A stretch of 64,000 nt of DNA from Pseudogymnoascus verrucosus. Lineage: Eukaryota. Positions 25,964 to 64,000 of this stretch are shown here, in pieces. Under the pieces are notes generated by a model that was not told the DNA's origin, did no database searches, and was given only the letters and a program-made list of their open reading frames with translations. The stretch is taken from the NCBI GenBank assembly GCA_001662655.1, contig KV460226.1; one strand, 5' to 3'. The position numbers and the translations under genes were made by a program. Position 1 is the stretch's first letter; each line of letters begins with the position of its first letter.

Positions 25964-27108
25964 CTAACTAACCTCCACCCCCTCCAGCCCATCCAGAACC
26001 TCCTCCACAACCCCACTCGACAACACCCTCCCCACCATCCTCTTCACCATCTCCCTCCCCGTCCCCCCCCTCCTCGCACTCCACACCCCCTCTTCCCCCC
26101 CCGTCTCAACCTTCGCCGCTGCATCCCCCCCCGTCGCCGTATTCAGATAATTCGGCACCCCTGGCGGCGTCAACCTCGCCGGCGGATCAATCGTCCTCGC
26201 GCTCAATAATCTAATATCCCTCTTCCTCCCCTCACCACCAGCACCTTGCATATCCACATCCCCCCCTTCATCGCTTGTAGTCGATCGATCCGCGACCGAA
26301 ACAGCGAGCACGGCATCCGCAACGGCAAGTTCCTCCTTACTTGGGTCGAAGAGGACGTTCTCCCCGACTGCGATGACGAGGATGGTGACTGGTGGACGGG
26401 AGGTGCTGGTGTGGCGAGGGTAGAGAGGGACGGCGGCGTCCCAGTCGTCGTTGAAGAGGGGGTCTTCGTCGCGCTCGGATTTTAGGGCTGGGAGGCGGGT
26501 GGAGAGGAGGGCGAGGTAGGTGGTTAGGGAGAGGAGGGGGAGGGGGTAGGAGAGGGGTGGGGAGAGGAGGAGGATCTGTGGGGTGTTAGCGCGCTCGGTC
26601 TTCAAATATGGGGAGACTTTGGGGTACGAACGTCGATATAAAGCTTCCAATGAAACCTCCGATTAATCCACAACCTCGGCGTGAACGACCCATCCGCCAA
26701 CAACGCCTCCGCCAGAATCGAACTCAGCACAACAGGCATCGCATCATCATCCCTAAAGCCCGGGATATCAATACTCAGCTCCACCCACTTATTATCCCCC
26801 CCCTTCTTCCCCCCCCTCCCCTCCTCATCCTCCTCATCCACATCCACGAATCCCTCGCCCGCGCCTGGCTGCTGCGCCGTGCGCTCGACTTCCGCTTTGA
26901 TCCCGACGATGGCCTCGGTGCCGTCCGCGAAGCAGATGCGTGCGGATCCGTTGGTGGAGGGCAGGATGTCGGTCTCCGCGGCGAGGGGGCGGAATTGGGT
27001 TGCGGTGCGCGAGTCGGGGCGGAGGGGGGGGTGCAGGGAGAGGGAGGTGTGGAGGTAGGAGAGCTCGGCGGGGGAGAGGAGGAGGAGTTGTGTGGAGGTT
27101 GGTGCCAT
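25964..27108 (-). CDS. RRP42: Exosome RNase PH-like subunit Rrp42 (2 exons)
   Basis: LSPAELSYLHTSL...RPDSR...FRPL.AETDILPSTNGSARICFADGTEAIVGIKAEV; HWKLYID-ILLLS...SYPL across an intron at about 26578-26632. Confidence 0.88.
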
Positions 27109-27485
27109 GGTGGCGGTTTGCGCGGGGGTAGGGCGCGCGATGAGAGGATGTGTGCGCTGGTGAGAGAGAGGGTGTGCGGATTGACGCGTTTGGGGTGGTG
27201 GTGGTGGAGGGGTAGGAGGTGTTGAAGGGCTGTTTGGGGACTTTATTTCGTTAGTGTGGTGCAGCCTTTTAGCGCAAGGCTGAGGTTGAGATGCGATCGA
27301 TATCATATTTACAGCAGGGATTGGCAAAGTTTATGCCAAGACTCTAGGATGAGGTATAGCTTTTTGGGATGATTGCAAGAAGGGCCTCTAAACAAATTAA
27401 GTGTGCTCTGAGTTAATATTCATTTCATCTGAAAAGTGTACAGTATGCAAAATTGGCGTAAAGGCCGCTTCAATGGTAAAACCTA

Positions 27486-27567
27486 CCAGAGAATAGTTAC
27501 CAGAGAATAGAGAACAGAGAATAGAGACCAGAGAATAGAGCCCAAATAATAGTTACCAGAAAATTGG
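27486..27567 (+). repeat. Short tandem repeat, 13-15 bp unit CCAGAGAATAG(AG/TTA), about 6 copies
   Basis: Directly visible; lies about 60 bp before the 64-bp array. Confidence 0.8.
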
Positions 27568-27627
27568 CACGAGACCATAGATATCATTCTCACAAGCCAA
27601 GTATATCCTCAAGTTTATGAACATATC

Positions 27628-28010
27628 GGAAGCTACGACCAAAGTTTGCTTAATAATCGTTCTTTCCGATGTCTAATTTTGACGTTCTAGAGAAGCCGCG
27701 ACTGAAGCGCTTGATAATCATACCTTCCATATTTATCCCTTGAAGATCCTGAGGAAGGTGCGATTGAAGCTTGCTTGATAATCATTCCTTCCATATATAA
27801 ATATTTCAAAAGTCTCGGGGAAGTTGCGACTGAGGTTTGCTTGATAATCATACCTTCCCTATCTATAACTCAAACCCACCGAGGACGCTGCGACCCAGCA
27901 TTGCTTGATAATCATTCCTTCCATATATATCACTGTGAAAAACTCAAGGGAAACTGCGACTGATACTTGCTTGGTAATCGTTCCTTCCATATCTGTAACT
28001 TCAAGTTCCT
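27628..28010 (+). repeat. Array 1 of a ~64-bp repeat family (6 units)
   Basis: Core GGAAGYTGCGACTGA..YTTGCTTGATAATCATWCCTTCC; the TTGATAATC anchor or its variant is at 27650, 27711, 27775, 27841, 27905 and 27971. Confidence 0.92.
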
Positions 28011-28117
28011 ATAGAGAGTAATCATGGCTCACACAAAACACGACGTGGTATAATAACCAACCCATACCCAACATTACCCCAGATACGCCCCTTTTACCCT
28101 CCCCCTTTCCCCCCACC

Positions 28118-30160
28118 CTACCTCTGCGCAAAGTCCACCACCAACCTCCCCGCCAACTCCGTCCCCACAACCGCCACCAAATCCCCTAGCGCCTGCTTAA
28201 TGACCGGCTCCCCATCCGTCCTCCCATCCCCAGGCTCCGGGTACCCCTCCCAGCCATCTATATCGCTGAACCTTATGACCGCGCCCCGCCCATAAGGACG
28301 CAGGAGGGAACCGAGGTCGAAGGCTTCGAGCTCGTCGGCTGTGAGGGCACCGGGCATGTTTTGGGAAAGGAGGTTGAGGTCGTCGCCGTCGTTGGTGGGT
28401 GGCGGGGATCTGTGGGATGTTAGGGGTTGGAGGTGGGAAGACGGGGTAGGAACGGACCTTGAAGCAGCGGCGGCCTCGGCCTCTTCTTTAGTTGGGGCGG
28501 GGATACCCCGTGCTTTCTCAGACGAGAGAGAGACGTAGCGCCGTGCGTCCATGCGTAGCTTGAGATCGTCATCGAGGAGGTCCCACGTGTACTTCTCTGG
28601 GTCTAGGATGTACTGTGGGTGATAGTCTGCTTTATACTTCATCTTGGTGCAGCCGTGGATGTAAAATCCCATCATATACCATCTACACCCCTGTTCGATG
28701 GCTAAAGCCGTCTCGCGTAGCGCGCTCAATTTACCAGGGCTCCAAGTGTGAAGGTCCTCATGGTACATGAAGTAGACCGCGCTGATGGCGTTGGGAAGAA
28801 GATCAAGAACACCGATGGCGACGAGGCGCCCATCAAGGCGGTAGCATTGGTGGTAGGAGCCTAGTTTCTTCTCTTTACCATCAACAATCGTTGTGCTGCG
28901 CTTTATCTTCGAGGAGCAGAGAAAGTTGCGGAAGCCGTGGCGAGAGATGTCATCTGGACCCTCTTTGTGGACGATACGCTGGTAGTTCTCGTAGAGGAGG
29001 TATTTCTCCTCTGTGAAAGTGTCTGGGTCCAGTGTGACTGCGAATTCGTGGGCGGGCTTTGTTGGCTCTTGGAGATAAGAGAGCTCGCTCTCGTGGACAC
29101 GTTCGCAGAGATCAAAGGTCTGCTTGTATCTTGCTGCTTCGGCTTTGGATTTTGGATGCAGTTTTGCCGTCTCTTTGATGTATTCATCGCCGAGTATGTA
29201 GTGGTTGAAGCGGTTCTGGGCCTGCCTCTGGTCCTTGGTGGCTTTGAATGCGGGTGCATCCAGCCGGAGGGTGTAATGGGGACAACATGCGTTCCTGAGG
29301 TCAGGTTTGTAGAGGAGGGTCCCTGACCGCCTCCAGCCTCTACATATTAAGTCTTCATAGAACTTGGGGGTTAGGTACTTGGAGGAGGCGTAGTAGGAAG
29401 GGCCTATTCAGAAGAATGAGTTTTGCTTCCTTCACAGCGAGAGAAGCATGTAGGAAAATGAAACCAATAAGAATCTGACCGTGAAAAACTGAGGAGAGAT
29501 TCCCCAATGAGAAATGACTATGAGAACCTGACGTCGAAAACAGAGATGAATAGAGATGAATGCTTACTTCCTGAAGACCCGCGACTCGAAGACCTACGCT
29601 CGGCCTTGCTCTTACAGTATCCGCATGAATGTGCGTGGTAGCCTACATGACGTCTCCTATCAGCAATAATTCATCAAGCAGCAAGCTCAATTCAGAATCC
29701 TTGTTAGATCTCGTGACTCTCCTCGTGACTGCCCCTCGCCGGCACAGAACCTCTGACGTGTTCTGGACCAGCATTCTCCAGCGTAGGACTCCCACTCCCA
29801 GCGTGGGGGTTCCGCCACCCACGCCTCCCACGGTTCTCCCCCCCTAGGGGCCAAAAAATGCAGCAGATCATCACCTGCACCCGAAGCGCGGGGGCCACTG
29901 TAGCCAGCAACCCAGCACCGACAGCACCAGGCCATCCTGAAAGTGCGGCGTGCATGCCGCTACGGCGACAGGCCCCGCGGGATATGCGAGGGTGGGAGGA
30001 CGGACGTCATCCAAGGGATGTGCCCACGTTCTGGAATGAATGGAGGAGAGCGCATGTCAGGGGGCGGAATTAGGGTTTGGAGAGGCTGACCTATGGGGCC
30101 GAGGACGGCGTCGGGCACGATGGTGGTGGTGCTGGAGTTGGAGTTTGTCGGCGAGGACAT
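28118..30160 (-). CDS. ATE1: Arginyl-tRNA--protein transferase (N-degron pathway)
   Basis: Spliced N-terminus LGPIG-YHAHSCGYCK...YEDLICRGWRRSGTLLYKPDLRNACCPHY; GSYHQCYRLDGRLVAIGVLDLLP; YMMGFYIHGCTKMKYKADY. Introns 29643-30090 and 29404-29567. Confidence 0.93.
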
Positions 30161-42806: not shown

Positions 42807-43691
42807 CAGTGTTGCCCGAGTACCGCTCCGAGTACTACTCGGAGGAACCTCGAGTACCGGCCTCAAAATTGAAGCTCGAGTACCGGTATTCGAGTACTGG
42901 TACTCGAATACCCGAGTACTACTCGCATATAAATAGAAATTGAAATATTACTATATATATACTATTCTAACTCATTATTTACATTATTACTGCTATCCTC
43001 ATCGTTACCTTATAATATAATACCCTAACTTCTTAAGTAGAGTAGATATTAAAGCGTAGATGGTAATATTTAGTTTCAGAACGTAAGTAAGTAAGGTAAG
43101 GCTCCATTTATTTACTCTTTTTACACTTAATTACCCCTGTTTCAGTGTTCCCCAAAATAGTATTAGTATTTGTGGTTTTCGAATAGTATTCGGCGACGAG
43201 TAGTATTCGGGCAAAATTTGGGGTATTCGGCGAGTATTTGCCAAAGACTCGAATACTATTCGAGTTCTTGGCGTGCACGGCCTAGAACGCAAAGCAACGA
43301 ATATTAGCAGGTAAAGTAGTATTAGTAATCAGTTATTATAAAATGTGCTAACACGTGACTGCTGCTGCAGTCACGTGTTAGTTCCACTAACTTTTAAAGA
43401 CTCTTTCTATAGCCTATTATTACTATTCGGCGAGTGCTATTCGACGAGTACTATAACTTCGTATGAGTATTCGCCGAATATTATCAGGTTATGAGTATTC
43501 GGGAAAACCCCGAATACTATTCGAATACTATTTGGTGAACACTGCCCTGTTTGCTAAGGGCTTGGCAGTACTCGTAGTACTCGGAGTAGTACTCGGGGAC
43601 TCACCGAGTACTCAAAAATATCACCCGACTACAGTAGTACTCGGGTACTCGGCGAGTAGTACTCACGGCGAGTACTACTCGGGCAACACTG
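42807..43691 (-). mobile_element. Non-autonomous hAT element (outer; 475 bp once the nested insert and one TSD copy are removed)
   Basis: TIR CAGTGTTGCCCGAGTA / TACTCGGGCAACACTG; TSD GTTATTAT at 42799-42806 and 43692-43699; dense subterminal CGAGTAC/GTACTCG repeats; transposase C-terminal remnant on the minus strand. Confidence 0.95.
43143..43544. mobile_element. Nested hAT-type MITE (402 bp)
   Basis: TIR CAGTGTTCCCCAAAATAGTATT / AATACTATTTGGTGAACACTG; TSD CCCTGTTT at 43135-43142 and 43545-43552; subterminal CGAATAC/GTATTCG repeats. Confidence 0.95.
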
Positions 43692-43867: not shown

Positions 43868-45946
43868 CTAAACCCTCCTATCCTGCACCCTCTCTGTCTC
43901 ACTCTGAAAGGTTTTCTCATCATAATCCGGCTCCCCCACCGGCTCCTCCGGCCTCTCGGCCCTCTTATTCAACTTCCCTCCCTTCAAGAAGTACACAAAC
44001 TGCTGCAGCCCATACTTGGCAAACAACCTGCTCTTAACCCCAAACACGACATCCAGCTCCTCAAGCGTCTTCCCCTTGGTTTCAGGGACAAGCATTAGCA
44101 CCCCGAAGAACCCGATCACGTTCCACGCTGCGTACCAGCAGAATGCCCCCGTCGGTCCGAAGGCTTCGAGGAGCGAGGGCCAGGTGATGGAGAGGACGAA
44201 GTTGAAGAACCAGGTTGTAGCTGTGGCAAGGGACATGCCCTGCGAGCGGATGTACAGAGGGTACGCCTCAGCGGAGTAGGTGAAGGGCACCGGGCCCTCG
44301 CCAGGGGAGTAGACCATTCCGAAGAGGTAAATCCCGAGGGCGATACACGCGATTCTCGCCACCGACGTCTCAGGGATGAGGAACGAGAAACCCGTGAAGA
44401 ACAGCGCCAGCGCCATTAATGGGAAAGTAGTGAGAAGCAGATTGCGGCGACCAAAGGTATCGATGGTGTAGAAAGCGGGGAGAGCGAATAAGAAATTTAT
44501 AGCGCCGAAACCCATTGAGGCGCCCAGGGCAGAGAGTTCAGAGAGGTTGGCCTCTAGGAAGATCTCCGAAGAGTAGTAGGCTATAATATTGACACCGCAG
44601 AATTGCTGCATGAACATGACCAACTCAGACGCCTGGAGGGCGCGGCGGTTTCGCGGGACGCCGATGAGTTCCTTGGCTTTGTTGCCCATGTTGATGGTCT
44701 CGAGCTCGGCGCTGACGAGGTATTGAATGTAGAACAGGTCGCGCGCAGCTTGTACTTTGTTGAAGCGGAGTTGCTGGATTGCTGTCCAGGCTTGGTGGTG
44801 CCGGCCCTGGCTGATGTACCAGCGCGGGGACTCAGGACACATGAAGACGAAGCAGCATACTACGACGGCAGGGATCATAGCGGAGGCCATCATGAGACGC
44901 CAGTTCATCCCCGAGACGCCGGACGGGTCTTTGACTTCGTAGAACATCAGATCAGCCGCGTACCCGACGAAGATACCAAACGCCGTGAACATCTGCCAGC
45001 ACATGATGAGCGCGCCACGAATGGGTGGCGGCGCCGTCTCAGCAGCGTAGATGGGCACGGTGGCCGATTTGGGACCGATGCCGAAGCCGAGGAAGAAGCG
45101 TGCGATGAACATGTGCCACCAGGTGTTGGCAAAGGCTTGCCAGAAGCAGGCGGTGGCGGAGAAGAAGCAGGTTAGGAAGATGGTGCCGCGGCGGCCGAAC
45201 CAGTTGTTGAAGGGGATGGTGAGCCAGCAGCCGATGAAGGCGCAGCAGAGATAGGGGCCGGAGTTGAGGAGGCCGACAAGCCAGGTGGAGCGGGGGTCCT
45301 TCTCGCCGATGCCGAAGTGCTGTTTGTAGAAGATTTGGGCGCCGTTGACAACGGTTTCGTCTGGGGGGAGTTAGTCGCGTGATCTCTTAAAAAGTATCAT
45401 AATTAAAAATGAAAAAAACTTACCCATTCCCTGTACAGCTGCACACAGCGAACAAGGCAGAATCACGAGATACAGCTTCTTAGGCTGCCTCCACTTGTGC
45501 TCCAGCTCATCGGAAAACACCTTGCGCTCGTCCTCAGTTAGTCCCTCGACTTCGCGGAACATATTCGGGTCCTTAGCGACCATAGCCCCGAGTCTGAAGG
45601 CGCGAATATCCTCCGCCTCGCCCAGCGCAAACTCGCGACAGTACTGCTCGCCCATGTCGCCGACCTTCTCGACAGGGAAATTGCCGAGCGGATTCGCAAG
45701 TTTGAGATTTAGCCTGCGGCGCGTGCGCTCCCTCTCGTCGGTGATGCCGGCTAGTCTCTCATCTTCATCCTCTTCTTGATCGGGCTTGCTAACTACGGAG
45801 TCGCGGCGAGGGCTGGACGGGTCGGCGGGGGAGGAGCTGGAGGAGGGCTCGCCGGTGTTGATGCGTGTGGGGACGGCGACCTCATTGCTGCCGATTGGTA
45901 TGGTGGTGAGTTTGTTGTTGGGGTCGTCCATGTTGAGGTCCGCCAT
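43868..45946 (-). CDS. MFS sugar-porter family transporter (polyol/myo-inositol-like), 2 exons
   Basis: AAVQGM-DETVVNGA, FGRRG, PIYAAETAPPPIRG, PESPRW, MQQFCGVNIIAYY, FGRRNLLL, VPETKGKTLEE. Intron about 45361-45424. Confidence 0.9.
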
Positions 45947-48108
45947 GGTTGGCATGCGGATTGGGGATTTGTTTGTTGAAAGATGGAATTGATAGGAATG
46001 AGGGGAACCACAGTATATATTTATGTATATGTGTTTAAGTAGATTTATCAAAGGAAGGAAATATATGATTAGAGAAAGAAAGAGGTAAAACTGCTTAGCG
46101 GTGTGGGGTTCCCACTAAGTTATATGTTGACAATCCGATCTCCAGTTTTTCTATGGATAGTCGAGGGGGAGTCTCTTACGCCTTCTGGTACCTTTGACAT
46201 CATCACGAGGGAATCCTTGATGGGGCGAGATGGAGGTGGTGATGTGGGGAAGTAGTAGAGTGAGTATTGGTAGTCATTGGTAGTGACTTTATGACTTCTG
46301 TAGATGGTAGCACTACTATAGTACTATAGTAGTGATTGCCTTGTAGTCATCTAGGAACGTGATTGGAAGTGCGGGAGGGTATGGGAGGGAAAGGGAGGGA
46401 GGGAGGGATGTGGGGGGAGATAAAGGCGGGAGGGGATGATAGGAATAGCCTGTAACAAGGCATCCCGAGGAGCAATTGGGGAAATAATTGGAGGCAGAGA
46501 AGGAAGGGGAAAAGAGTGGGCATCACACTCTTTTCTCTCTGCGGACTCTAGAATCCCTAGGCGGAGGTGGGTAGGTACATAACATAAAGTGAGAGAATAG
46601 CAGCAAATCGATGTACTACCACAGTTATATTCAGGTCGTATACTTGTATACTGCTCATGACCCGCACGCTTTCCCTTGCTCGTGCAATCGAATGACATTC
46701 GGCAGCGCCAAGAAGCGCGCGTGAAAGTTGAGCAACAAGAAATTAGGAAGATAAACGCACCAAAGCAGGACTTTGCCATGCGAGGAAGACTAAGCGATCC
46801 CAGCGATCCAGCTCACCAAGTGGAGACCCCGCATCCCGACCGGTACTCACCCCGGCTATCCACGGTGGCGTCCAGACGGGGTTTAGCGTACCGTCATGAA
46901 TGAACGAGAGTGGTCCGTTTTGGGGATTGTGGGGGAGTTGTGAGGCGTGTATTGATCAATTGGGATTAGTGGGAACAAAGCGGCGGGATTATGGGAAACA
47001 AGACGCGAGAGTGGATGCTTCATTTGGAAATGGAGGGAGAGAAGAGGATGTAAGGTGTGGTGTGTGGCTTGTTGGTGGTGACGTCATTATATTTGATTTT
47101 AGTGGTTGCGAGGGTGAGGATGAGAGATGGGGGAGCGATGGGGGAGGGATGAGGGAGGGGTGGGAGGAGGTCGGGGGTAAGAAATAGAGCTGATTGAGGC
47201 AAATCGGTGTGGCTTAACGGAGGGGTGATGTCATGGGAATGGGTATAAAATTGTAAAAAGTGAGGATTGGGCCTTGACTTGACTGGCTTGGCGATGCAGG
47301 ATACAAGACTCGACTACTATAACACGGGTCGGTAGTGAGGCCGAGTGACCACGTAGTAGTGTGTAAGAGACGACAGTGTACAAATGAAGTGTTATGTGAG
47401 AGACGAGGAGTGTACAATGGGATGCACTATATGTACGAGAAAGTGTACAGGAAAGAGTATAAATTAAAGATTGTGAGAGTCGAGTCTAGCATAGACTGCA
47501 TTGATAGTCGAGATAGTCGAGATACTATATTGCAGGTTATAGTGTGATTATTGGCTCCTCTACTCACAAACACCAACAGTCAAGTCTAGCCGTACAAGCG
47601 TCGTTAGTCGAGTCGAGTCCAACTGCCGGAGACACTAGGGCAAAACACTATAACGACTACACTCGACAACACTCTATAAAGACTCCATTCCACTCTCATC
47701 ACCAACAGCCTCATGAATACTCCATCCATCTCTTCAAAAACCTCAACCAATCGCCACCCCTACCCCTTCTCATCGCTCAATCCATCCCCCTTTCCCCTCT
47801 CACTTCTTCTCTCTCCCCCAATCTTCCAACCCCCCCACTACCCCCACCATCTCCAACAAACAGCGGATCTTTTCCTTTGGTGGGGTTGTGGGGTAGATGT
47901 GGTGATCGATCTCCCCACTTTCAGTATTTCGACGTCGCAAGTAGAGAATGAGTAAATGAGCAAACAGGTGCTTTAGAGACTTTTTATTTCGTATATGGAT
48001 CACTTCGGTGCGCGAATTGTTGTGAATATTAGTAAAAATGGGGGTGACAATTATAATACTTGTTGCGATAAAATGGAGAATAAATGTCGTATCACCACCA
48101 CCTAAAAT

Positions 48109-48644: not shown

Positions 48645-49129
48645 CCTAAAATAGAAAAAGGCTTGAGCATCTAAACAAAACAAAATAAAAACAAAACGCA
48701 AACCATAACTCAACAACACATTCTACTACAGCTTAAGGGAAGAAAAAACCATTAATAAAACATCAGCGCTAATTGATCATCTAAAAATAGATCTCATCTA
48801 GGGCTACGAGTTCTCGCAGCTGCCTCAACCTAACCCCAAAATTGGCCTTCGAGGGTAATATATTAAGGGTTCCGGAGATGAAGTTAATCTACTATAAAGT
48901 ATATATAATATCCTTCATCTTATTAAATTTCGTTTGTTGATAGATAAGTAACTAAGCATATTTTGGCTTGTGGTATAAGGCACAGTTCCTCGGGCATACC
49001 GAGGATTAGGCAACCATGCTTAAAAAGGCGCACATTTTACATCTAGATAAAGGAGACTACAGCCGCCAATTCAACTTTCTCGAAGATTCTCCACTAGCGT
49101 GGATACATTAACCTCGTTCGTAGCTCACT

Positions 49130-50923
49130 ATGGAAGACGCAGTACGATATCAATACCTACCCCTCGCCAAAGACAATAATGACGGTTCGACGCGCTTACT
49201 TCAGCTCTTACCCGGCGCAACTGGCGAACCGATCAAGGGCAGCATTGTGAACGTGAACCTCTGCGACAACCCAGGCTACGAAGCTCTGAGCTATTGCTGG
49301 GGCGATACTGCCAATACCATTCGTATTTATATTGGGAAAGAATATATCGACGTAACACGAAATCTTCACGACGCTTTAGTCAAGCTGCGCGACAAGGAAG
49401 ACCCTAGAACTCTTTGGATTGATGCCATCTGTATTAATCAATATAATGTTTTAGAACGATCGCAGCAAGTCGGAATCATGGGGCAGATCTACAAGCAGGC
49501 CAAGAAGACCTTGGTTTGGCTTGGTCTAGAAACCGCGAATACTGCTAGAGCTTTCGAACTTATCCCATACCTCCTAGCGATATTTGAGGAAGCGTTTCAA
49601 GGGAAACCACGTCCAGTTCGTCTTGATCTCCGTATTTTAAGGCATCCTAGTATATTGCGAGTTTATGAGCAAGTACGCTTGTTTGAACCTTTTATTCAAT
49701 TGGAACAGCGCCCATACTTCTCAAGAATCTGGATAATTCAAGAAATTGCTCTCTCGTCTAATAGCGTTTCATTATTTTGGGGGCAATACTGCCTATCCTG
49801 GGAAGAGTATTTCGCAGCAGCGTATACATTCGCTTGTCTCGAAGTTCGGAAAGCGAACCTTCACCAACCTCTTGGCGCATTCCCTGCGTTGGTCATGGCC
49901 GTTCTACAACTAAGAGCGTCGAAGAGCACATCGCTGATAAGCCTCCTGGACCAATATCGACGAAAAGACTCTACTGATCCACGGGATAAAGTGTTTGCGC
50001 TGTTAGGAATTGCTGGATCGAAAGACATCTTATCTCTGAGCTGCAAAGTTGACTATAATATGACTGTCGTCGAGGTCTATACAAATCTCGCTAGCTCGTA
50101 CATACAGAGAGACGATAACCTTGATATACTCAGTTACACTCAATGTGGCCCTAGTATACCCTGCCTGCCTTCATGGGTGCCCGATTGGACAAGCCGGGAA
50201 GATATGCCAATTAATTTTAGGGTACCAAACTGTTCAGGCATTCGTTTCGATCACCACGCTGGAAGCGACAGTGGCTGCGGTACAAGCATATATGTGAACG
50301 GAAAAACTTTAACTAGCCAGGGCGTTCTTCTTGACCAGATTACGAGAACCTCGGGTTTGATCGACAAAGCGTGGGGTATAGGCTGCTGCAATGCTCATGC
50401 TTGGGAAACAATTGCAGAATTGAAGGAGAGGGGTAGTTACGTCGCTGGAGGCACAGCCATGGATGCCTTCTTTATGACTCAACTTGCTGGCTGTCCGAAA
50501 CTTCAATATGATATCATGAAAGGAAGGTTTCAGGAGCTATGGGAGGAAGCAAAAAAGCATACTCCAAAGAAAACGATTCAAGGTTCCCTTACTGTGTCAA
50601 CTGCAGAAGGTTCACAGCTACAGAGGGTTAATCTGATACCAATAGATGACCGGGAAACAGGAGAGATTGAAGCTCTTCTATCGTCAAGCCTTCAATACAC
50701 CAAGAGGAGGCGGTTTGCGATGACTTCTAGGGGATACTATGGGTTAGTGCCAGCCAAAGCTACTCCTGGCGACCAGATTGCCATTTTGAAAGGGGCAAAT
50801 TACCCTTTTGTCTTGCGTGCGCAAGGGCAAAGCTGGAAACTTGTGGGCGAATGCTATGTACATGGAGTCATGAATGGAGAGGCATTTGATGCAACCGCCT
50901 GCGAGGAAGTGTTAATAGATTAA
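49130..50923 (+). CDS. HET-domain (HET-6-like) heterokaryon incompatibility protein
   Basis: YEALSYCWG, LWIDAICINQ...ERSQQVGIMGQIY, YFSRIWIIQEI, TDPRDKVFALLG, LPSWVPDW, LVGECYVHGVMNGE; intronless 597-aa ORF. Confidence 0.93.
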   Translation: MEDAVRYQYLPLAKDNNDGSTRLLQLLPGATGEPIKGSIVNVNLCDNPGYEALSYCWGDTANTIRIYIGKEYIDVTRNLHDALVKLRDKEDPRTLWIDAICINQYNVLERSQQVGIMGQIYKQAKKTLVWLGLETANTARAFELIPYLLAIFEEAFQGKPRPVRLDLRILRHPSILRVYEQVRLFEPFIQLEQRPYFSRIWIIQEIALSSNSVSLFWGQYCLSWEEYFAAAYTFACLEVRKANLHQPLGAFPALVMAVLQLRASKSTSLISLLDQYRRKDSTDPRDKVFALLGIAGSKDILSLSCKVDYNMTVVEVYTNLASSYIQRDDNLDILSYTQCGPSIPCLPSWVPDWTSREDMPINFRVPNCSGIRFDHHAGSDSGCGTSIYVNGKTLTSQGVLLDQITRTSGLIDKAWGIGCCNAHAWETIAELKERGSYVAGGTAMDAFFMTQLAGCPKLQYDIMKGRFQELWEEAKKHTPKKTIQGSLTVSTAEGSQLQRVNLIPIDDRETGEIEALLSSSLQYTKRRRFAMTSRGYYGLVPAKATPGDQIAILKGANYPFVLRAQGQSWKLVGECYVHGVMNGEAFDATACEEVLID

Positions 50924-54352: not shown

Positions 54353-54478
54353 ATGCGTCCTCCCGACAGCAGGTTGGCCACCCCGATCGTAATTTTCTGA
54401 TATAATGTCTAAATACACAAGCAAGCAGTATTGTTTATCCGGAAAGACCTACCGAAACACTTTCTAGAAATCACGAGA

Positions 54479-56092
54479 ATGGACCCCATCCAGCGCCTTC
54501 AGGAGTCTCTTATTGACCGCCGTACTGAGAACGTTCGCTACCGTCAAAACCAACTACAAAGCTTGCATGCTACTCTTTGCAATAGCGCAAATTTAATATG
54601 CAATTCGATTGCAGAAGATGCACAAGTTGAAAGCTCAAATGCCGAGGCTGAGACAGAGTATTATCTTTCCATGAATGCCGTGAAGCATTTCTACGAGGGC
54701 CTGGGCTTCGAAAAATCAATTAATGACGAGTACTTGATTGCAACAGGGATTGATAACCCTCAGAGACAGGTAGGATATGGTCTAGTAATTATTCGCCCTA
54801 CTACGCATACAAGGTTATATTCGATTGTATGCCCATTGGCGGCGGCTTTAGCGGCGGGGAATGTTGTCGTCATAGAGGTTCGTTAGTCCTGATGCTTGAA
54901 GACGTGTGCCTAATTTATGTAGCTTCCTGATACCCTTCTCAAAGTTGATGCTATCCTGAAGGAGGTCTTACCAGAAGCGTTAGATCCCGACACCTTCGTT
55001 ATTTCCGCAAAATTGATTGAGGACCCGTCAATTCTTTTATCAAGTCTACTCGTCGACCAAACGTCTGCAACAACAACAACAACCATCGCTAACTCGCTTT
55101 CCTCTCAAAACAAGCACCGAACAATTGCTATTGTAGACCGTACAGCAGATATTGAAGCTGCAGCAAAGGCAATTGTAACAGCACGCTTCAAATTTCAAGG
55201 CGCTTCTCCGTACAGCCCAGACCTGGTCATTGTTAATGAGTATGTCAAGGATGAGTTCTTTGCAACATGTTCAAAATATGCGAGCCAAATGTTTGTTTCT
55301 GGCGTGAAAGCCAAGAGGTCGAGAAGCAATGCTGAAGCCGAGACAAAAAAGTTCTTTGAAGACGCTATTGCCAAAGAGCAATTGTCAACATTTCGTTTTG
55401 CGGATTGTATCCTAGCGCATGTCACGGATAGGTTGGTTTTCTCGTCGAGATTTTTGGAATTTGAAGATTAACATGACTCAAGCACCTGCCTAGTGACCGA
55501 AATAAAAATCCACGGCTGCTACCTGCCCATAGTTACAAGCACCAGCATGGTTGATGCCATTATCAAAGAGATGAGGTATATCTACACCACTATTAACTCC
55601 AACTTTAAAGCTCTCAACTTACTGGTAATTAGGTCAAATCTACTCGCAGCTTATATCTTTGCACAACCTCCGGAAGCTAAATTTCTTGCCCAACACCTCA
55701 AGGCACATCTCACTGTCATCAATCAAATACCCGTGAATCTCCTGGTTGGGCCAGCTGCGCCATGTGGGATCGCTATGGAGTACAAGTACCGATATAGCCC
55801 CGAAATGTTTTCAATCCAGCGTCCACAATACATTCATGCTCTACCCACCGAGCTGTCGGTAGTTGATGAACATCTTGTTCCTGGCCGGAACCCAAATGGA
55901 ACCACGAAAGTGAAGCAGTTACGATCATTAGCGACGCGGAAACTGCCTGGGACGGGACAATCGCAGGGGCATGATATTGGATTCTTTGAACAGGGAATAT
56001 TGTTAGGGTTGGGTGTTGTCTTGAGCATTGTGGTGCCGGCGGCAGGGTGGGGGCTATGGGCAGTGGGGAAGAAAGTTAGGAGTTCGATGTGA
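54479..56092 (+). CDS. ALDH3/Hfd1-like fold protein lacking the catalytic residues, with C-terminal TM anchor (multi-exon)
   Basis: GLVIIRP...PLAAALAAGNVVVI; AIVDRTADIEAAAKAIVTARF..GASPYSPDLVIV; LAAYIF; hydrophobic tail GILLGLGVVLSIVVPAAGWGLW. Canonical introns. Confidence 0.8.
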
Positions 56093-56392
56093 TTATGTAG
56101 GAGTACTGTTTTAATAATAAAATCATCTACAACATATGTGCAGTTGCATACGGATGTGTTATCTGAGGGCGCGCAACCAATCTATCTTATTCTATAAAGA
56201 CTTCGGGTTTTATTTATTTTATAATATCGTACGAAACAGCGGGATTCAAACCATGTCACTATGTATGATGTCCGACTCCTATGTTCCAGCTTCATGATTT
56301 GCATTAAAACGATGATGAATATGATAGCTTAAACTTAGAAATGCCCCTAAAACCTGTACATATCAACTCGAATTAACCCAATGGATCCTTCA

Positions 56393-57335
56393 TCAAACAG
56401 CAGCTACCACCCTACCAGTTGAGGGCCACTTCCCAAGCGTATATTGGCTGTTGCACATATTTTGTAGTTCCCAGTCCTCGGCTCCCAACTCAGCTACTGT
56501 TCCTCTATCCTCAACTGAGCCACATAACCCAGCAACAAACATGGCTGACATAAAGTGATCATCAGTGGCGTGAGCATCCCTATATTTGGGAACTTTCATC
56601 AACATCGTCATAGCCCGCCGGAGTTCAGGACCTGATGTCTTTGTAATAGCGTCTTCAAACTCTTGTCTAAAATCAAGTAATAGACTACTGGGTGGAGAAG
56701 GCATGGCGAAGTTATCTGTGCGGTTTCTTATAAGTAAAATATAGCTCCCCGCCCGGATAAACTAATAACGTACCACGGAAGCGCAACATCTGGAACCATG
56801 AATTGCGATATAGATTGTGCACAGCACCACCAGAGCCAACAAACAGAACTTTCTCCTTGCGCATGGGGCGCAAAGCGGAGCCGACCTTCACATGAAAGTG
56901 TGGATCATAACGAGCGTTCATGGATATAATAGTTGTTGGCGGACAGCCCCCTGGAAACATCCGGATGAGAACCAAATATGTATCGTGTATCCAGTCGAAT
57001 TTCTCGTTCAGCTTTGCTTTGAAGCCCGACTGTTTAAGCAGATCTAGACATCTGTGCGACATCGGGATATCGGGGTTGAGGGCGTAAGGGACATATTTAT
57101 CGTGATGGACGTAAGCGACTGGTGATTTCTCCGGCTTGGGATTCGCCGCAATCTCAATTTCATCGCCAATTGTTGCCCAGTGAGCACCCATAATGACGAC
57201 GTGCTCAATGCCATTTGCGAGTGCTTCATCTCCGCATTTCTTCCAGTAGTCAGCAGAGGCAGACTCCTCGCCAAGCATCATGGTTGAACCATGGGAGAAG
57301 AAATGGACAGGTGTCAATTTGTTTGTAGATGCCAT
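56393..57335 (-). CDS. LigB/DODA-family (class III) extradiol ring-cleavage dioxygenase; intron 56716-56773
   Basis: FFSHGSTM, MGAHW, DWIHD, GSGGAVHNL, AHATDDHF: the conserved His ligand pattern of LigB/4,5-DOPA dioxygenases. Confidence 0.9.
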
Positions 57336-57468
57336 ATTTTAAAACTGAAAGACCGATAACGCATACGAAGACGCAACATAATCAAAGAAGAGGTTGAAAG
57401 TGACAGCTTGTAAGCTGAAGTCATAGACAATGGGCAGATCAATAGAACGGCTTCCCAACATTCTTGCA

Positions 57469-57566
57469 GCCCACATTCCGAGACTCGTTTTATTGAGTGA
57501 AATATAATGTGGCGAGACATTTATGTGGGGCCGACCATCCGTTTAGCCACATTCCCCCACATTCCG
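57469..57566 (-). promoter_or_regulatory. Cluster motif copies 2 and 3 in the dioxygenase promoter
   Basis: GCCCACATTCCG at 57469-57480 and CCCCACATTCCG at 57555-57566, plus a partial GCCACATTCC at 57546. Confidence 0.7.
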
Positions 57567-57850
57567 TACTTACCCCCAAAGTATGGGGGTCTATTGTCGG
57601 AATTCTTGTGGCTGCTCATCTCTCCTACATCGTTTTATGGGGTAGTATCACTGAGCATACTTCTATAATTAGTACATGGTATCGGATAGAGAGCTAAATG
57701 CCGTAAAATCAAGTTTTCGTGCTTGTAAAAGCCGCCAATTTTATGCTGCTGAAAGTGACAGGATTTGTACGAGCGCTGTCGAAACATACTTCGTGTCTCG
57801 TTTCTAGTTGTGGAATGAGAAGTGGCATATTATTTATTACCATATCTATA

Positions 57851-60800
57851 TCACTTAACTATTACACCTCTCGCCGCAGCCCCCAGCTCCCTTATTAACT
57901 GGCTTAAATTCTCCACTAGTGGTGGAGGCGGCGCTTCGTCTCCACCAACCACGCCCCTCAAGATCTTAACAATGGCGTTCATGACACTCCCCGGCTCACG
58001 CAACATGGCGATTTCCTCTGACGTACACCCATCAGCCTCAGAGACCAAAAAACACGGTATCCCACGTTGTAGCGCAATGAATGATTTCGTAAATGAACTC
58101 TCTTCCACATCTAACCGGACAAGCTCTTCCCCAGAATTATCACCAGCCTCGTCTACGCTATTTACACCTCCAACGAGTGGTAGCTCAGACTCATTTTGGT
58201 CATGCTGGGCGTTCGGCCTTAGACTCAAGACGCCAAACGCCCAGAATGTGAGCGCAGAGTGGTATACCGCGACGGCGAAGAAATCTCGCAATCCTCCTTG
58301 CAAACCCCTTCTATTATTCAGTAACTTCGCATAGCGGACGATCTGCCCGGCGTGAAACACAGCGGTTCGGGCTTCACGGCTTGCAGCCCATTGTTGGAGA
58401 GAGGGATAGACGCGTCGGGCTTCCTCTTCGCCTTCCCTGCCAGCGAAAACTTGTAGGCTATCGAAGGATACGTATAGATTGGTGATGAGGAGCTCCGTTA
58501 ACAGTTTGGATTGGAGTGCTATGCTTGATTGATTTTTTCGCCCTGGCCCCGGCTCGGGCAATGAGGCGGAGAAAGGCTCTAATAGCTCGCGTAGTTCTTG
58601 GTGGCGGTGTCCAAGCACTAAAAAGCTCGAGGAGAGGCGTATTGATGGATATGCCTTTGCAACCGAGTTTAGTTGGCGGTATTCTAGGATTAGGCCCCAG
58701 ATTCCGTAAGCGATGATAGAATGAGATAGGGCAGAGTCGATGGCTGCCTTGACAGAGGGGCTGTTTAAAGGAGATATGTCATGGAGGCATTGTTGTAAGG
58801 ATGGGATGCGCTCGTTGGAGTTGATGGAAGAAGTTTGAGTGAGGTAGGTTGATTTCCACTCGGCAGCTGTGCGGGCGAGGAAGAGGTTGCGGGATTCCGG
58901 TAAGGGGAGCGAGAGCTCGGCGTAAGAGATTATGGTGGGATTCATGAGCGAGATTGAGGTTTGGGCATCACGGATAAAGAGGTGAAAGACGAGTCTGTCA
59001 GATATTAGCAAATTTAGTTTGGAGCGTAATGTAGGCTGGGATAGCTACCGCTTAAAGGATTCCTGCTGCGCCCAACTCCTCCACTTATTCTCTAAAGCCT
59101 CACCCTCATCACCCTCCAAGGGAATAATAGCCACGTAGTTCGATCTCAAAAATCGACCTGCTCGTCGACACATCGTTATGACCGTCAGTGCATGACTTTC
59201 TGCCAATTCCATCTTTCGTTTATTACCGCTCCAAAGCCCAACATCTAGATTCAGGGCCAGGGCTTGCAACAGGCCAAGGTCACGCGTCATGGAGTTATTC
59301 TCCTCGCAAACTACCGGAAGTGATCTCCTCACAGCTTCATGGATTGCAAATCCTAGCTTGCGAATAGTGAAAGATGTAGAAAGAGCGGCACCCGCTGAAA
59401 CAATGCTACCTAATAGCTCTGCATTCTGTCCCCCAATCTTTAACGTCGGTGAGTGGATCCAAGTATCTGACTGCATGATATGGTATGCGAGGAAGCAATG
59501 CAGAAGGTTATCCAGTAACTCTACAGACGGGAAGCTAGACATGACTTTTGTGAATGATGACCTCAAACATGTACTTAGCACCATAGATATGATCTTGTCG
59601 CGACCCGCGGCATTGAGACTCTCAGTATTGACGTGCATAGATTCCGCGAAATGTGCTGCAGGACTGCTCATCTCGGAAGGATGTAGAGTAAAATTTTCTT
59701 GCTCAACTAATCCTGTGTCTGCGCGAACGGGCGTCCAGCACCAGAGTGATTTGCGAAAAGCCTCAATGCCTAGCGCAAGACGCTCTGCGACCTTTTCTGT
59801 AGGTGCGTTTGATTGTGGTGTGGGCATTTCATATTGCAAGGATGATATGTCGATGACCTCTTTGACATAGGCTGTATCGTAGACGGCCTTTCCTTGGTAA
59901 AAGTCCATGAGGGTGTAATCTTGATCGTTGAGTTCGAGATTAGATTCCAAGCCGAAAGATAAGACATCTCTGAGGGCCATTGACTGGGCGTCGGTTCCCT
60001 GAGAGACGGGTTGTTGGCCATTGAATGGCTCTAACGTGGTCGGCATCATGACCTCTCGTAAGAAATCGGCGAATTCGCTCTCGTCACAGTCTATCAATGC
60101 GTTTGATGATAGGGAGGTTTCCATTGGCAATGACATAGACATGTCTAGGAAATATATCAGAAAGGTAACACTTTATCTTCAGACGAGGAAGCTTACCATC
60201 TCTATTGTGGCTCTGGGCTGGATCTATAACATGTTCACCTCCCCTCGAAGCCAATTCACCAAGAACTAGATTGCTGCCCGAAGTATAATCCATGATATCA
60301 TGCTCCTGAGGCTGTCTTGGTTCATTCGCAGACTGAGTAGCAAATGTATCCTCAGACGAAGGATTACCAATATTTTGCTGTATGGTATCGTGAGAGCTGC
60401 TAGATAGTTGCCACGATCCATTAACTGTCGCGTCTGTCTCGTTATACTCACAAGTGACACCCTTAGCTTCACATCTTTGGCAAGGTTTCTCTTCTTTACA
60501 TTTCAGCTTTGCAGCTGCGCAAGCCTTGCATGCATGCGACACACGTCCTGGGCGAGACGGGCATGTTTTGCGGTGCTGGCGGTTGTCGGTGTGAGCTTGT
60601 GCATGTCTCTTTAATAAATCACTACGAGAAGATTAGATACGTGCACTGATTAGAGAAGAATGACATATTTATATTTAATACATACGGCCTGTTGAAAGTT
60701 TTGAAACAAGCCTCACATCGATATGGTTTCTCGGAGGTATCTAAACGTTGTTGTGGTTAGCACCAAATCTTTTCTGGAGCGGAGGCTCTCGAGAGTCACA

Positions 60801-60952
60801 TTACGGGAACGGAAGTGGCGTGCAAGATGATCTATCCTGGCATATGTCCGTTGGCAGACATTGCACTTAAACGGACCGGGCTGGACTTGATTCTGGCCTC
60901 GCTGATTACTGTCGGGATCGGGATCCGGATCTGTTACGTCGGTCGAGTTCAT
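57851..60952 (-). CDS. Transcription factor with two C2H2 fingers, a Zn(II)2Cys6 cluster and a fungal-specific TF domain (5 exons)
   Basis: FKCNVCQRTYARIDHLARHFRS-HTSEKPYRCEACFKTFNRP-DLLKRHAQAH; ACKACAAAKLKCKEEKPCQRCEAKGVTC; WIHSPT...WRSWAQQESFKR-LVFHLFIRD. Confidence 0.9.
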
Positions 60953-61032
60953 GGCTGCGAAGGGATTTTGATGTGAGGACCGGGAAGTTGTGGAGGAGAT
61001 GCGGAATATAAGGGAATTTAGAGGGTACTTGT

Positions 61033-61044
61033 CGGAATGTGGGG
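61033..61044 (+). promoter_or_regulatory. Cluster motif CGGAATGTGGGG (copy 4, TF/ALDH divergent promoter)
   Basis: Exact 12-mer about 80 bp upstream of the TF ATG. Confidence 0.7.
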
Positions 61045-61626
61045 GGTGCGGGGTTGGGGGCAACTAAGCCATATATAGTAAACTTGCCAAGTCTGGGGAA
61101 ATGTGCTCTTCAGCCAATGACGCATCAATTGGTCACGACCTTCCCAGGTCGCCAAGCCCCTTTTGAGAGACTTGATACATTATCGTTAAATAACACTGAA
61201 AGTGATAACGACACAATTGAGCGAATGCAGCACATAAATAGTGTAACTACGGTGTATGTATAAACACGTACACTATCCTTCGGTGTGGTCCACTAACCCG
61301 AGGGCAGTGAAACGGAGACCAGTAAGCCTCATGGCTGTCCCCGGGGGTTAAGACCATAAACCTATTGTTGTGAGTAAGTGACACTTGTGGAGCTTATCAC
61401 CTGCGAACCTATACAATCGTAGAGCCCCGTGAAAAGAGTAAAGGTGCAGTTCGAATCCTTCCTATCCCCCTATCCTCTTTTAATTTCCTCTTTCTGTCGA
61501 GGCCAAGACAACAACCGCCCTCTCACTCTGAATTTCCTCTCTAACTTTATCAGTTCTTCGTGCTATTTCTGTTTCATCTGCTGTGAATCAAATACTCATA
61601 CGGTTCTGTCGCATCCTACAAAAGCA

Positions 61627-63208
61627 ATGAATCTCTCCACTAGCCATCTCACCGGCCCTGTGAACGGCGAACTTGGGAAACTATACACCATCCCTGCTCA
61701 AATCAATGGCAAAGAAGTCATCCTATCCCCAGCCTTCGACGTCCACTCTCCCATTAACGGGTCTCTAATTCACCGTTGTTCCTCCGCCTCCGTCGCCGAC
61801 GCCCTCTCCGCCGTCACCGCTGCCCAGGCAGCCTTTCCGGAATGGCGCGACCTCCCCCCAGCTGCAAAACGCGACATCTTTCTTAATACTGCTGAAATAT
61901 TCAAGAGTAGAAACGAGGAATTGTTGAGATATATGATCGATGAAACTGGCGCAGGCGAGTTCTGGTCCGACTTTAACATCACACTTGCAGCGGATATCCT
62001 GAAAGATATCGCAGGCAGAATCTCAAGTCTGAAAGGCGATGCGCCGATAACAGGGAATCCGGGAACAAGCGCAATCGTGTATAAGGAGCCATACGGTGTC
62101 ATTCTAGGCATCGCTCCATGGTACTCCTCTCTCCATCTCTTCCTCTTTCCTCTCCTCTCTGGACAAAATGCAGATATATACTTACCCACCTTTCCTCTCC
62201 CGAATATCCTCCACATCACGACTAACATATCCTAGGAACGCACCCTACATCCTTGGCGTCCGCTCTATTGCCTATGCCTTGGCCGCAGGTAACACTGCCA
62301 TTCTCAAGGCCTCCGAGTTCTCCCCGCGCTGCGCGTGGGCCATTGCCGATTGCTTTCGTCTCGGCGGCCTCCCCGCCGGCGTTCTAAACACCATTGCGCA
62401 CTTTACCTCCTCCGCAGCTGCCATCACAGAAGCCCTCATCGCCGATTCGCGTGTCCAGAAAATCAACTTCACGGGCTCTACGGTCGTCGGGCGCATCATC
62501 GCCGAGACCGCAGGTCGGCACCTAAAACCCGTCTTGCTGGAGCTGGGCGGCAAAGCGCCTGTGATTGTATGTGAGGATGCGGATCTGGAAGTTGCCGCGA
62601 CAGAGTGTGCGAAGGGCGCATTTATGCATTGTGGACAGGTGTGCATGAGCACAGAAAAGATTTTGGTGCATAAAGATGTCGCGGCGGCGTTTGAGGAGAG
62701 ATACAGAGAGAAGGTGGTCGATATGTTTACCAAGCAGGGAGTGTTGATAAATAGGGCGGCTGTGGACAGGAATATGCGACTCGTGAGGGATGCGGTCGGG
62801 AAGGGGGCAGAGGTGCTGACTGGGACCGTGGAACAAGATCATCAGCTACCGGGGACGCATATGTCACCAATAGTTGTGAAGGGAGTGACGGAGGCGATGG
62901 AATTGTATAATACAGAGTCGTTTGGCCCGACGGTGAGTATTATTGAGGTAGAAACCGAGGAGGAAGCGGTACGGATCGCGAATGATACCCCATATGGCCT
63001 CACATCAGCAGTGTTCACGGAGGACCTCAGGCGCGGACTGAGGCTTGCAAAGTGCATTGAGAGTGGTGCAGTGCATATCAATGGGATGACGCTGCATGAT
63101 GAGACGATGTTGCCACATGGCGGGGTAAAATGCTCAGGTTATGGCAGGTTTGGGAGTGGAGGATTGGAGGAGTGGGTCAGGAGTAAGACGGTTACTTTTA
63201 AGAATTAG
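61627..63208 (+). CDS. Aldehyde dehydrogenase, vanillin/salicylaldehyde dehydrogenase-like; intron 62121-62235
   Basis: EPYGVILGIAPW-NAPYILG, LKASE, NFTGSTVVG, LELGGK (Glu), GQVCMST (Cys), ESFGP, GAVHINGMTLHDE, HGGVK.SGYGRFG. Confidence 0.92.
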
Positions 63209-63234
63209 ATAGGTGGGAAAGGCGAAAGCTTTCA

Positions 63235-63488
63235 GGAAGCTGCGACTGATGCAGCTTGATAATCATACCTTCCGTGTTTATAATTCGAAAATTCTGAGGA
63301 AGCTGCGACTGAGACTTATTTACTAATCAATCCTTCCATATCTATAACTCGAGAGCCTCGAGGAAGGTGCGACTGAGGCTTGCTTGATAATCATACCTTC
63401 CATATTTACAGCTGTAAAGCCTCGAGGAAGCTGCGACCGAGGCTGGCTTGGTAGTAGTTCCTTCCATATCCATAATTTGAAAGTCCCC
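63235..63488 (+). repeat. Array 2 of the ~64-bp repeat family (4 units)
   Basis: GGAAGSTGCGAC at 63235, 63298, 63362 and 63426; same core as the 27628-28010 array. Confidence 0.92.
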
Positions 63489-64000
63489 AGAGCGAAAGTT
63501 AGAAGTTGTATATGTGAGGAGATTTATTTTGGGAATGAGGATGTTATGGCCTTTCCGATGAATAATTCGCAGTTGCAGATTGTATTGAATGAATATGAGA
63601 ATGACGAATGCTAACAACGAACGTCAATAATGGCTGTGATGTAGTTTAAAGGAACAAGGTTATGTCTAACTATACGTAAGTTATGTATGCTGTACGATCC
63701 AATAGATATATTCCGCACTCCAGCACACTAACTATATACAACCCTCCACTCCCCTCCCTGTCTATCTCTACAACTTTTATAATCCTACAGACTCCGAAAT
63801 TTTAGCTTCGACAGTTCTTTTGCAGCCCTTGTTTTCCAAGCACTGTACTGGGGGTTTATTTACCACGGTTAGTACCATTATGCTCGCCAACTGCTCATTT
63901 CTGATTCTTCCTTGAAAGCAGTGTGGAGCTTTGTCAGCTTTGAATGGAATTTGACGTTGGTTATGCTGCCCACATCACCATAATGGCGGAGCGGCTCAAT

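Follow-up and report, generated by a model that had tools for sequence, protein, structure and literature searches.

A multi-copy family of short satellite-like arrays with a 64-bp unit in Pseudogymnoascus

The tandem array directly behind an aldehyde dehydrogenase (ALDH) gene in the 64-kb window (the whole stretch of 64,000 nucleotides analysed here) probably belongs to a family of satellite-like arrays, short and non-coding, each of 3-6 units of about 64 bp, which are scattered in unique gene-rich DNA of Pseudogymnoascus and are selfish or neutral in nature. The family is multi-copy, its loci are non-homologous, the homology between them ends at the ends of the arrays, and the arrays are constructed from whole conserved cores. 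Head-to-tail units, many non-homologous loci, homology limited to the array and lack of coding capacity are the features of a dispersed family of satellite-like short arrays, and all of them were found. A published description of this family in Pseudogymnoascus was not found in the literature outside subscription journals, a search in which Repbase and Dfam are not covered. In that literature the motifs of the unit, searched as text, matched unrelated papers only, and the work on fungal dispersed minisatellites and on repeats, transposable elements (TEs) and RIP in Pseudogymnoascus leaves the family undescribed.

The two arrays of the window and their neighbouring genes

Two arrays are present in the window, both on the + strand, with array A 35 kb upstream of array B, the one behind the ALDH gene. 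TRF calls array B at 63234-63469 (period 64, 3.7 copies, 75% matches, score 246) and array A at 27692-27992 (period 66, 4.7 copies, 72% matches, score 268). Anchoring on the 5' motif of the unit gives unit starts at 63236, 63299, 63363 and 63427 for array B, hence periods of 63, 64 and 64 bp, and six unit starts between 27629 and 27950 for array A. A profile of the unit, run with nhmmer over the 64-kb window, finds exactly 10 units, each with E ≤ 2.7e-12, while the next best match has E = 1.4. These matches are far beyond chance, and array B is confirmed as a true head-to-tail tandem array. The preliminary description had reported four units with these periods 27 bp past the ALDH stop and a second array of the same polarity 35 kb away; TRF and motif anchoring, together with the stop codon TAG at 63206-63208, bear out the former, and the recovery of both arrays on the + strand by nhmmer bears out the latter. 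The 10 units of the two arrays are 57-84% identical in pairwise comparison, the leftmost (sixth) unit of array A being more degenerate (57-70% to the others).

As a whole, array B occupies 63223-63496 (+) according to TRF, nhmmer and the extents of self and cross BLAST (63223/63235-63496). It consists of a partial, spacer-like unit that begins at about 63223, ahead of the first GGAAG, then four units and a short degenerate tail. The first unit (63233-63295, +) carries a 1-bp deletion between the GCGAC and GCTTG blocks, and its best partner by unit alignment and nhmmer is the second unit of array A (79%). The core of the second unit (63296-63359, +) is the most degenerate in this genome; the sister species have the consensus letters at 63318 and 63330. 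The third unit (63360-63423, +) is nearest to the consensus and 84% identical to the third unit of array A. The terminal unit (63424-63487, +) is of the GGTA...GTTCC type. Array A covers 27626-28013 (+) by TRF, motif anchoring and nhmmer and comprises six units of the same family, at 27626-27688, 27689-27750, 27751-27816, 27817-27880, 27881-27946 and 27947-28010 (all +).

A separate 14-bp tandem repeat is located 60 bp upstream of array A (27485-27564, 5.7 copies, 81% matches). A Rfam match to the C/D snoRNA Afu_264 at 27498-27594 (-) lies in this 14-bp repeat tract, outside the array; with 18.4 bits against a gathering score of 40, and E = 0.62, it was judged to be a chance match.

Array B follows the last exon of the ALDH gene (62108-63208, +; Pfam Aldedh, E 3e-99) directly on its 3' side and in the sense orientation, with the first GGAAG 27 bp after the stop. 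Array A is found 105 bp beyond the stop of an arginyl-tRNA-protein transferase (ATE1) ORF (28118-29407, -; ATE_N and ATE_C), to which it is antisense. Proteins of three Pseudogymnoascus strains or species match this ORF with 95%, 90% and 89% identity, and the window is accordingly a piece of chromosome from a member of this genus (Leotiomycetes). On its other side array A faces the 5' side of an ORF with an RNase_PH domain (exosome subunit-like; 26602-27330, -). Both arrays thus lie just 3' of a gene, one sense and one antisense to it, as had been described before.

The 35 kb between the arrays hold ATE1, a GT34 glycosyltransferase, an anthranilate synthase, a sugar transporter, a HET protein, a LigB dioxygenase, a Zn2Cys6 factor and two ALDH-like stretches. 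The earlier suggestion that array B marks the right edge of a cluster is not supported, as the genes between the arrays are unrelated and the family occurs at many unrelated loci. The stretch 54413-63208 contains a LigB-type ring-opening dioxygenase (56712-57338, -), a Zn2Cys6/fungal_trans regulator (57851-60632, -), the ALDH gene (61423-63208, +) and a second ALDH-like fragment (54923-55471, +). This gene group may be an aromatic-catabolism group, and it is probably the cluster that the suggestion referred to. The HET-domain (heterokaryon incompatibility) ORF is a single exon of 599 aa at 49124-50923. Pfam searches found no family in the ORFs downstream of array B or in those flanking three metagenome arrays of the family (L006, L007 and L010, described below).

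Dispersal of the family and change at the array B locus

When 2.5 kb around array A are compared by BLASTN with 2 kb around array B, the only alignment is that of 27628-28017 with 63235-63496, and everything outside it has E ≥ 0.29. Further copies were sought among contigs of four public runs that align to 62600-64000 with at least 80% likeness, a threshold which leaves out less similar units. One run (X1) is the likely source of the window, two (X2 and X6) are close relatives with 57-60% shared 31-mers, and the fourth (X10) is more distant. The unique flanks of array B are matched by one contig each (depth in X1: left flank 209.7, right flank 193.5), and the bins over the array collect many extra contigs beyond these single flank contigs in X1, X2 and X6. 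The numbers of contig records are 24 for X1, 18 of them only partly on the stretch, 26 for X2, 88 for X6 and 6 for X10; 65% (X1), 78% (X2) and 68% (X6) continue into unlike DNA. At least six extra X1 records, among those listed, have single-copy-like depth (167-215) and lie inside or at the ends of contigs of 3.9-38 kb; one of these contigs was recognised by its spacers as array A. We estimate further arrays in the order of ten or more per genome as a lower bound, the copy numbers being minimal counts from contigs and summed contig depth not being a copy number. All listed matching contigs are single-copy-like in depth, though short-read contigs may hide collapsed long arrays. In X10, an RNA run only by guess, none of the six records bridges the ALDH end and the array, which is neutral on expression.

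The family is also found in environmental DNA. An IUPAC pattern of the core matched 14 loci in JGI metagenome contigs, three of which nhmmer confirms as arrays, with five (L006), four (L007) and three units (L010); the remaining 11 are pattern-only matches in which nhmmer finds no array. The same pattern gave single pattern-only matches, and no array, at four loci in prokaryote genomes and at eight in viral contigs. With 95% identity to a P. destructans protein and 98% to one from JGI, the neighbouring gene shows that L006, too, comes from Pseudogymnoascus. L007 and L010 are contigs of the same metagenome data set, as their shared contig-name prefix indicates, and place the family at more than one locus in one environmental genome. 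L010 was considered as an orthologue of the array A locus and ruled out: tblastn with the ATE1 and RNase_PH ORFs gives no match, and BLASTN matches the arrays only. A protein search with the translated array returned two database 'proteins' (P0121 and P0122) that are translated arrays with repeats of about 21-22 residues; they are likely gene-calling artefacts, and two such matches are too few for mapping the taxonomic spread.

Five arrays are readable end to end (A, B, L006, L007 and L010), and their homology is confined to the arrays, without common flanks. The claim of a dispersed family is thus well supported by the many further loci in this genome and its sister species and by the three metagenome arrays.

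At the array B locus, the orthologous contigs of X2 and X6 cross both borders of the array without gaps, with 13 differences on the ALDH side (62600-63401) and another 13 on the side of the right flank (63376-64000). Array B is therefore older than the split of these lineages. No empty site was seen in the comparison, as the array is present in both sister species. The contigs of X1, X2 and X6 end inside the array at 63376-63401, within the third unit, as expected of a de Bruijn assembly where 31-mers are repeated. In the right-hand contig at least 6 of the 13 differences fall in 63456-63488, that is, in the last unit and mostly in its spacer, and at least 5 fall in the 510 bp beyond. The left-hand contig has at least 7 differences in the 634 bp before the array and up to 6 in 168 bp of array. 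These minimal counts point to faster change in array B than in its flanks between the sister species, which speaks against strong constraint on the whole unit.

Anatomy of the unit and relationships among arrays

The anatomy of the unit was derived from 22 units of the five arrays, which represent at least two genomes. In each unit about 44 bp, or about 69% of its length, form a core, and the other 20 bp or so an AT-rich spacer; the mismatch averages 0.136 in the core and 0.343 in the spacer (Mann-Whitney P = 2e-5). The core is thus conserved 2.5-fold better than the spacer. GGAAG and CTTCC mark its limits, and the CGA, TAAT and TTCC blocks within it are invariant; the well-kept positions run in the order GGAAG, CGA, GCTT, TAAT, CCTTCC and ATAT. 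The ends of the core form an imperfect inverted repeat, always with GGAAG/CTTCC and in some units with up to 13 nt at 85% complementarity. Two types of unit differ at one place, which reads GATAATCA in one type and GGTAATCG in the other. The periods of 62-66 bp shift the reading frame, and such ORFs as cross the arrays are short and without a Pfam match; the arrays are non-coding.

None of the 10 ends of the five arrays falls within a core. Such whole-core ends are unlikely by chance (about 0.31^10), although short partial cores would escape detection. The shortened segment that had been described for the first well-formed unit is real in both arrays of the window (the second unit of A and the first of B). 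It is not special to first units, since the deletion occurs in 10 of the 22 units, including the third of four in L007.

The last unit is of the GGTAATCG type in all five arrays, compared with 6 of the 17 other units (Fisher one-sided P ~0.018, a post hoc test). The TTGGTA...GTTCC variant reported earlier for the last units of A and B is accordingly real and extends to the three further arrays. Past their terminal units, arrays A and L010 have about 27 nt in common (local score 12; P = 0.012 by shuffling, without correction for the 10 pairs of arrays), and a TAGGG variant is shared by the last spacers of L006 and L007. Matching of units in preserved order is not significant: for A and B, 2 of 24 permutations score at least as high as the observed order, and the result is poorer still for the nine other pairs. 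The arrays may have been copied as whole arrays, judging from the terminal-unit variant and one shared tail, both noted post hoc. The polarity proposed in the preliminary description is thus partly and weakly supported: the terminal unit is the same variant in five of five arrays, but colinearity of units between arrays is not significant.

Identity within an array equals that between arrays in A (0.697 versus 0.694) and L007 (0.686 versus 0.702), which fits an old heterogeneous array and equally fits other histories. It is higher within L006 (0.787) and L010 (0.752). The units of L006 are 79-88% alike and the first two units of L010 are 90% alike, with a family mean of 70%; these two arrays grew by local duplication of units.

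Nature and spread of the arrays

We infer that the arrays are selfish or neutral. New sites would be seeded with ready-made short arrays or with single units by a process at the DNA level, for which the candidate routes are re-insertion of excised circles, rolling-circle copying and hitch-hiking on a since-lost transposon. Later on, unequal exchange in the AT-rich spacers would reshape the arrays, and the stronger conservation of the core would reflect a requirement of copying and not a service to neighbouring genes. Against this reading, neither a TSD above chance nor a TIR, a partner gene in the short flanks or an empty site in the two sister species was found, and the 2.5-fold better conservation of the core might be the mark of a host function instead.

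Such a function, which the preliminary description had suggested in the form of a repeated chromatin or terminator element, is the main rival explanation: the arrays would be host cis-elements, selected as repeated protein-binding, terminator or boundary modules near the ends of genes. Each unit has a TATATA-like stretch and a conserved core, and UAUAUA is a 3'-end efficiency element in budding yeast. The better conservation of the core than of the spacer in the 22 units, which come from at least two genomes, and the retention of array B in two sister species would suit this role as well. Furthermore, the 3' end of a gene is no more than about 300 bp away from each of the three arrays whose neighbour could be identified (B at 15-27 bp, A at 105 bp and L006 at about 290 bp), but three of three is too few to claim enrichment in a compact genome. 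The orientation to the neighbouring gene also varies, B being sense and both A and L006 antisense. Array B diverges more rapidly than the DNA on either side of it (the right-hand contig has at least 6 of its 13 differences in 63456-63488, against at least 5 in 510 bp beyond), and the core of the second unit of array B has drifted from the consensus in this genome. We regard a host cis-element as unlikely, although the conserved core and the 3' positions of the three arrays lend it some plausibility, and prefer the reading as selfish or neutral arrays.

A transposon that carries the arrays was the other suggestion of the preliminary description, in the form of Helitron-like or rolling-circle spread. 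The arrays would then be the tandem-repeat core of a non-autonomous Helitron- or Helentron-like element. The single polarity in all arrays, the common variant of the terminal unit and the short 3' tail common to A and L010 would agree with it, and PMC10048060 reports that the centre of a Helitron can hold as many as about 10 tandem repeats, and that such repeats are found standalone too. However, no left or right element arm is common to the five arrays, and comparison of their flanks shows no shared non-repeat body around the repeats. In the aligned flanks of the five arrays no common 5' TC, 3' CTRR or subterminal hairpin is seen, and no Rep/helicase gene is found near any copy within the short flanks available. 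Mobility of this kind is therefore without direct support, there being no shared body, TC...CTRR ends, 3' hairpin, TIR or TSD, and we consider it rather improbable.

The same flanks give no indication of other known element classes. The absence of TIR and TSD that had been reported holds for all five arrays: no inverted repeats span any of them, and direct repeats at their flanks do not exceed those of shuffled sequences in length (P 0.42-1.0). Solo LTRs or LTR-borne repeats find no support, as the arrays share no unique sequence on either side. A SINE or 5'-truncated non-LTR retroposon finds none either, with two types of 3' end, no poly(A), no array starting within a core and no TSD. A RIP signature is also absent: the indices (TpA/ApT 0.76-0.86 and (CpA+TpG)/(ApC+GpT) 1.35-1.56) are within the background of the window, and transitions make up 63%, with no C>T at CpA counted.

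Another reading, to which we give little credence, combines copying and host use. The 44-bp core with its imperfect 13-nt inverted ends would be what an as yet undescribed copying system of Leotiomycete fungi, acting on DNA, recognises; the system would move arrays or let them grow by whole cores, and some copies, such as the one behind ALDH, would have been co-opted as a terminator or boundary.

The inverted ends of the core also bring to mind tandem genes or a precursor of a small structured RNA of the snoRNA, tRNA or hairpin type. The 13-nt inverted repeat is up to 85% complementary in some units, and RNAalifold predicts a hairpin of 10 pairs on the minus strand. Compensatory changes are seen in none of the 5 predicted pairs on the plus strand and none of the 10 on the minus strand, the z-scores of single-unit folds range from -1.39 to +0.66, and the commoner unit type weakens the stem rather than preserving it. 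Rfam yields no family at or above the gathering score anywhere in the window and none with E ≤ 10 inside array A, and a search for tRNAs was likewise negative; a structured RNA is very improbable. A one-off segmental duplication, which the preliminary description would have recognised by only two copies with longer flanking homology and which agrees with the window insofar as it holds nothing beyond two copies, is refuted by the lack of flanking homology, the many further loci in the same assembly and in relatives, and the three metagenome arrays.

The satellite-like reading has parallels in animals and plants. Short arrays of fewer than ten monomers, dispersed in euchromatin and either standalone or inside TEs, are described in PMC10048060, where rolling-circle or circle-mediated spread is proposed. 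Dispersed euchromatic short arrays are well described in beetles, flies, oysters and humans (PMC10048060; see also PMC11610590, PMC7403614, PMC7719264, PMC3411249). The arrays of Tribolium Cast, Drosophila 1.688 and Rsp-like and human euchromatic alpha satellite resemble the Pseudogymnoascus family in having fewer than ten head-to-tail, non-coding monomers at many unique gene-rich loci, often beside genes, with homology ending at the array. Their spread is likewise ascribed, without proof, to excised circles, rolling-circle copying or TEs. The unit is 64 bp here, whereas it is about 170-360 bp in those families. Among the listed Pseudogymnoascus contigs, all of single-copy-like depth, no long heterochromatic mother array was seen, although short-read contigs may collapse such arrays, and the units of the family are very divergent (about 70% identity) with a sharp contrast between core and spacer. 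The host is also different, being a filamentous ascomycete, a group for which no such family was found described in the literature searched.

Two further comparisons concern other classes of repeats. Classical minisatellites (VNTRs) are likewise tandem with a unit of tens of bp and gain and lose units, as L006 and L010 do here, but they are usually locus-specific, whereas the Pseudogymnoascus unit family recurs at many loci and across species. The other class is that of repeats borne by Helitrons or Helentrons, such as DINE-TR1 of Drosophila. In PMC10048060, the central repeats of such elements in bivalves, including oyster, and in Drosophila are, as here, few tandem units of one polarity, dispersed and sometimes standalone. 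The shared arms, termini and hairpin of those elements were not found around the Pseudogymnoascus arrays.

How short satellite-like arrays spread is still a question even in the best-known animal systems, and the contrast between core and spacer together with the whole-core ends gives a handle on it in a compact fungal genome. The family also has practical consequences. Short-read assemblies break at it, as seen in array B, where contigs of X1, X2 and X6 all end, and its arrays can be mis-called as protein, as in the case of the two database 'proteins'. Cataloguing it would improve annotation in Pseudogymnoascus, a genus which includes the bat white-nose fungus, and the variable numbers of units could serve as strain markers.

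Short repeats of a different kind are also present in the window. Repeats on GTACTCGG or CGAGTAC-like palindromic words occur at 42875-43682 and 46266-46333, on either side of the sugar-transporter gene (43868-45370, -), and TRF detects similar short GTATCCGG repeats at 3934-3967 and 6432-6524.
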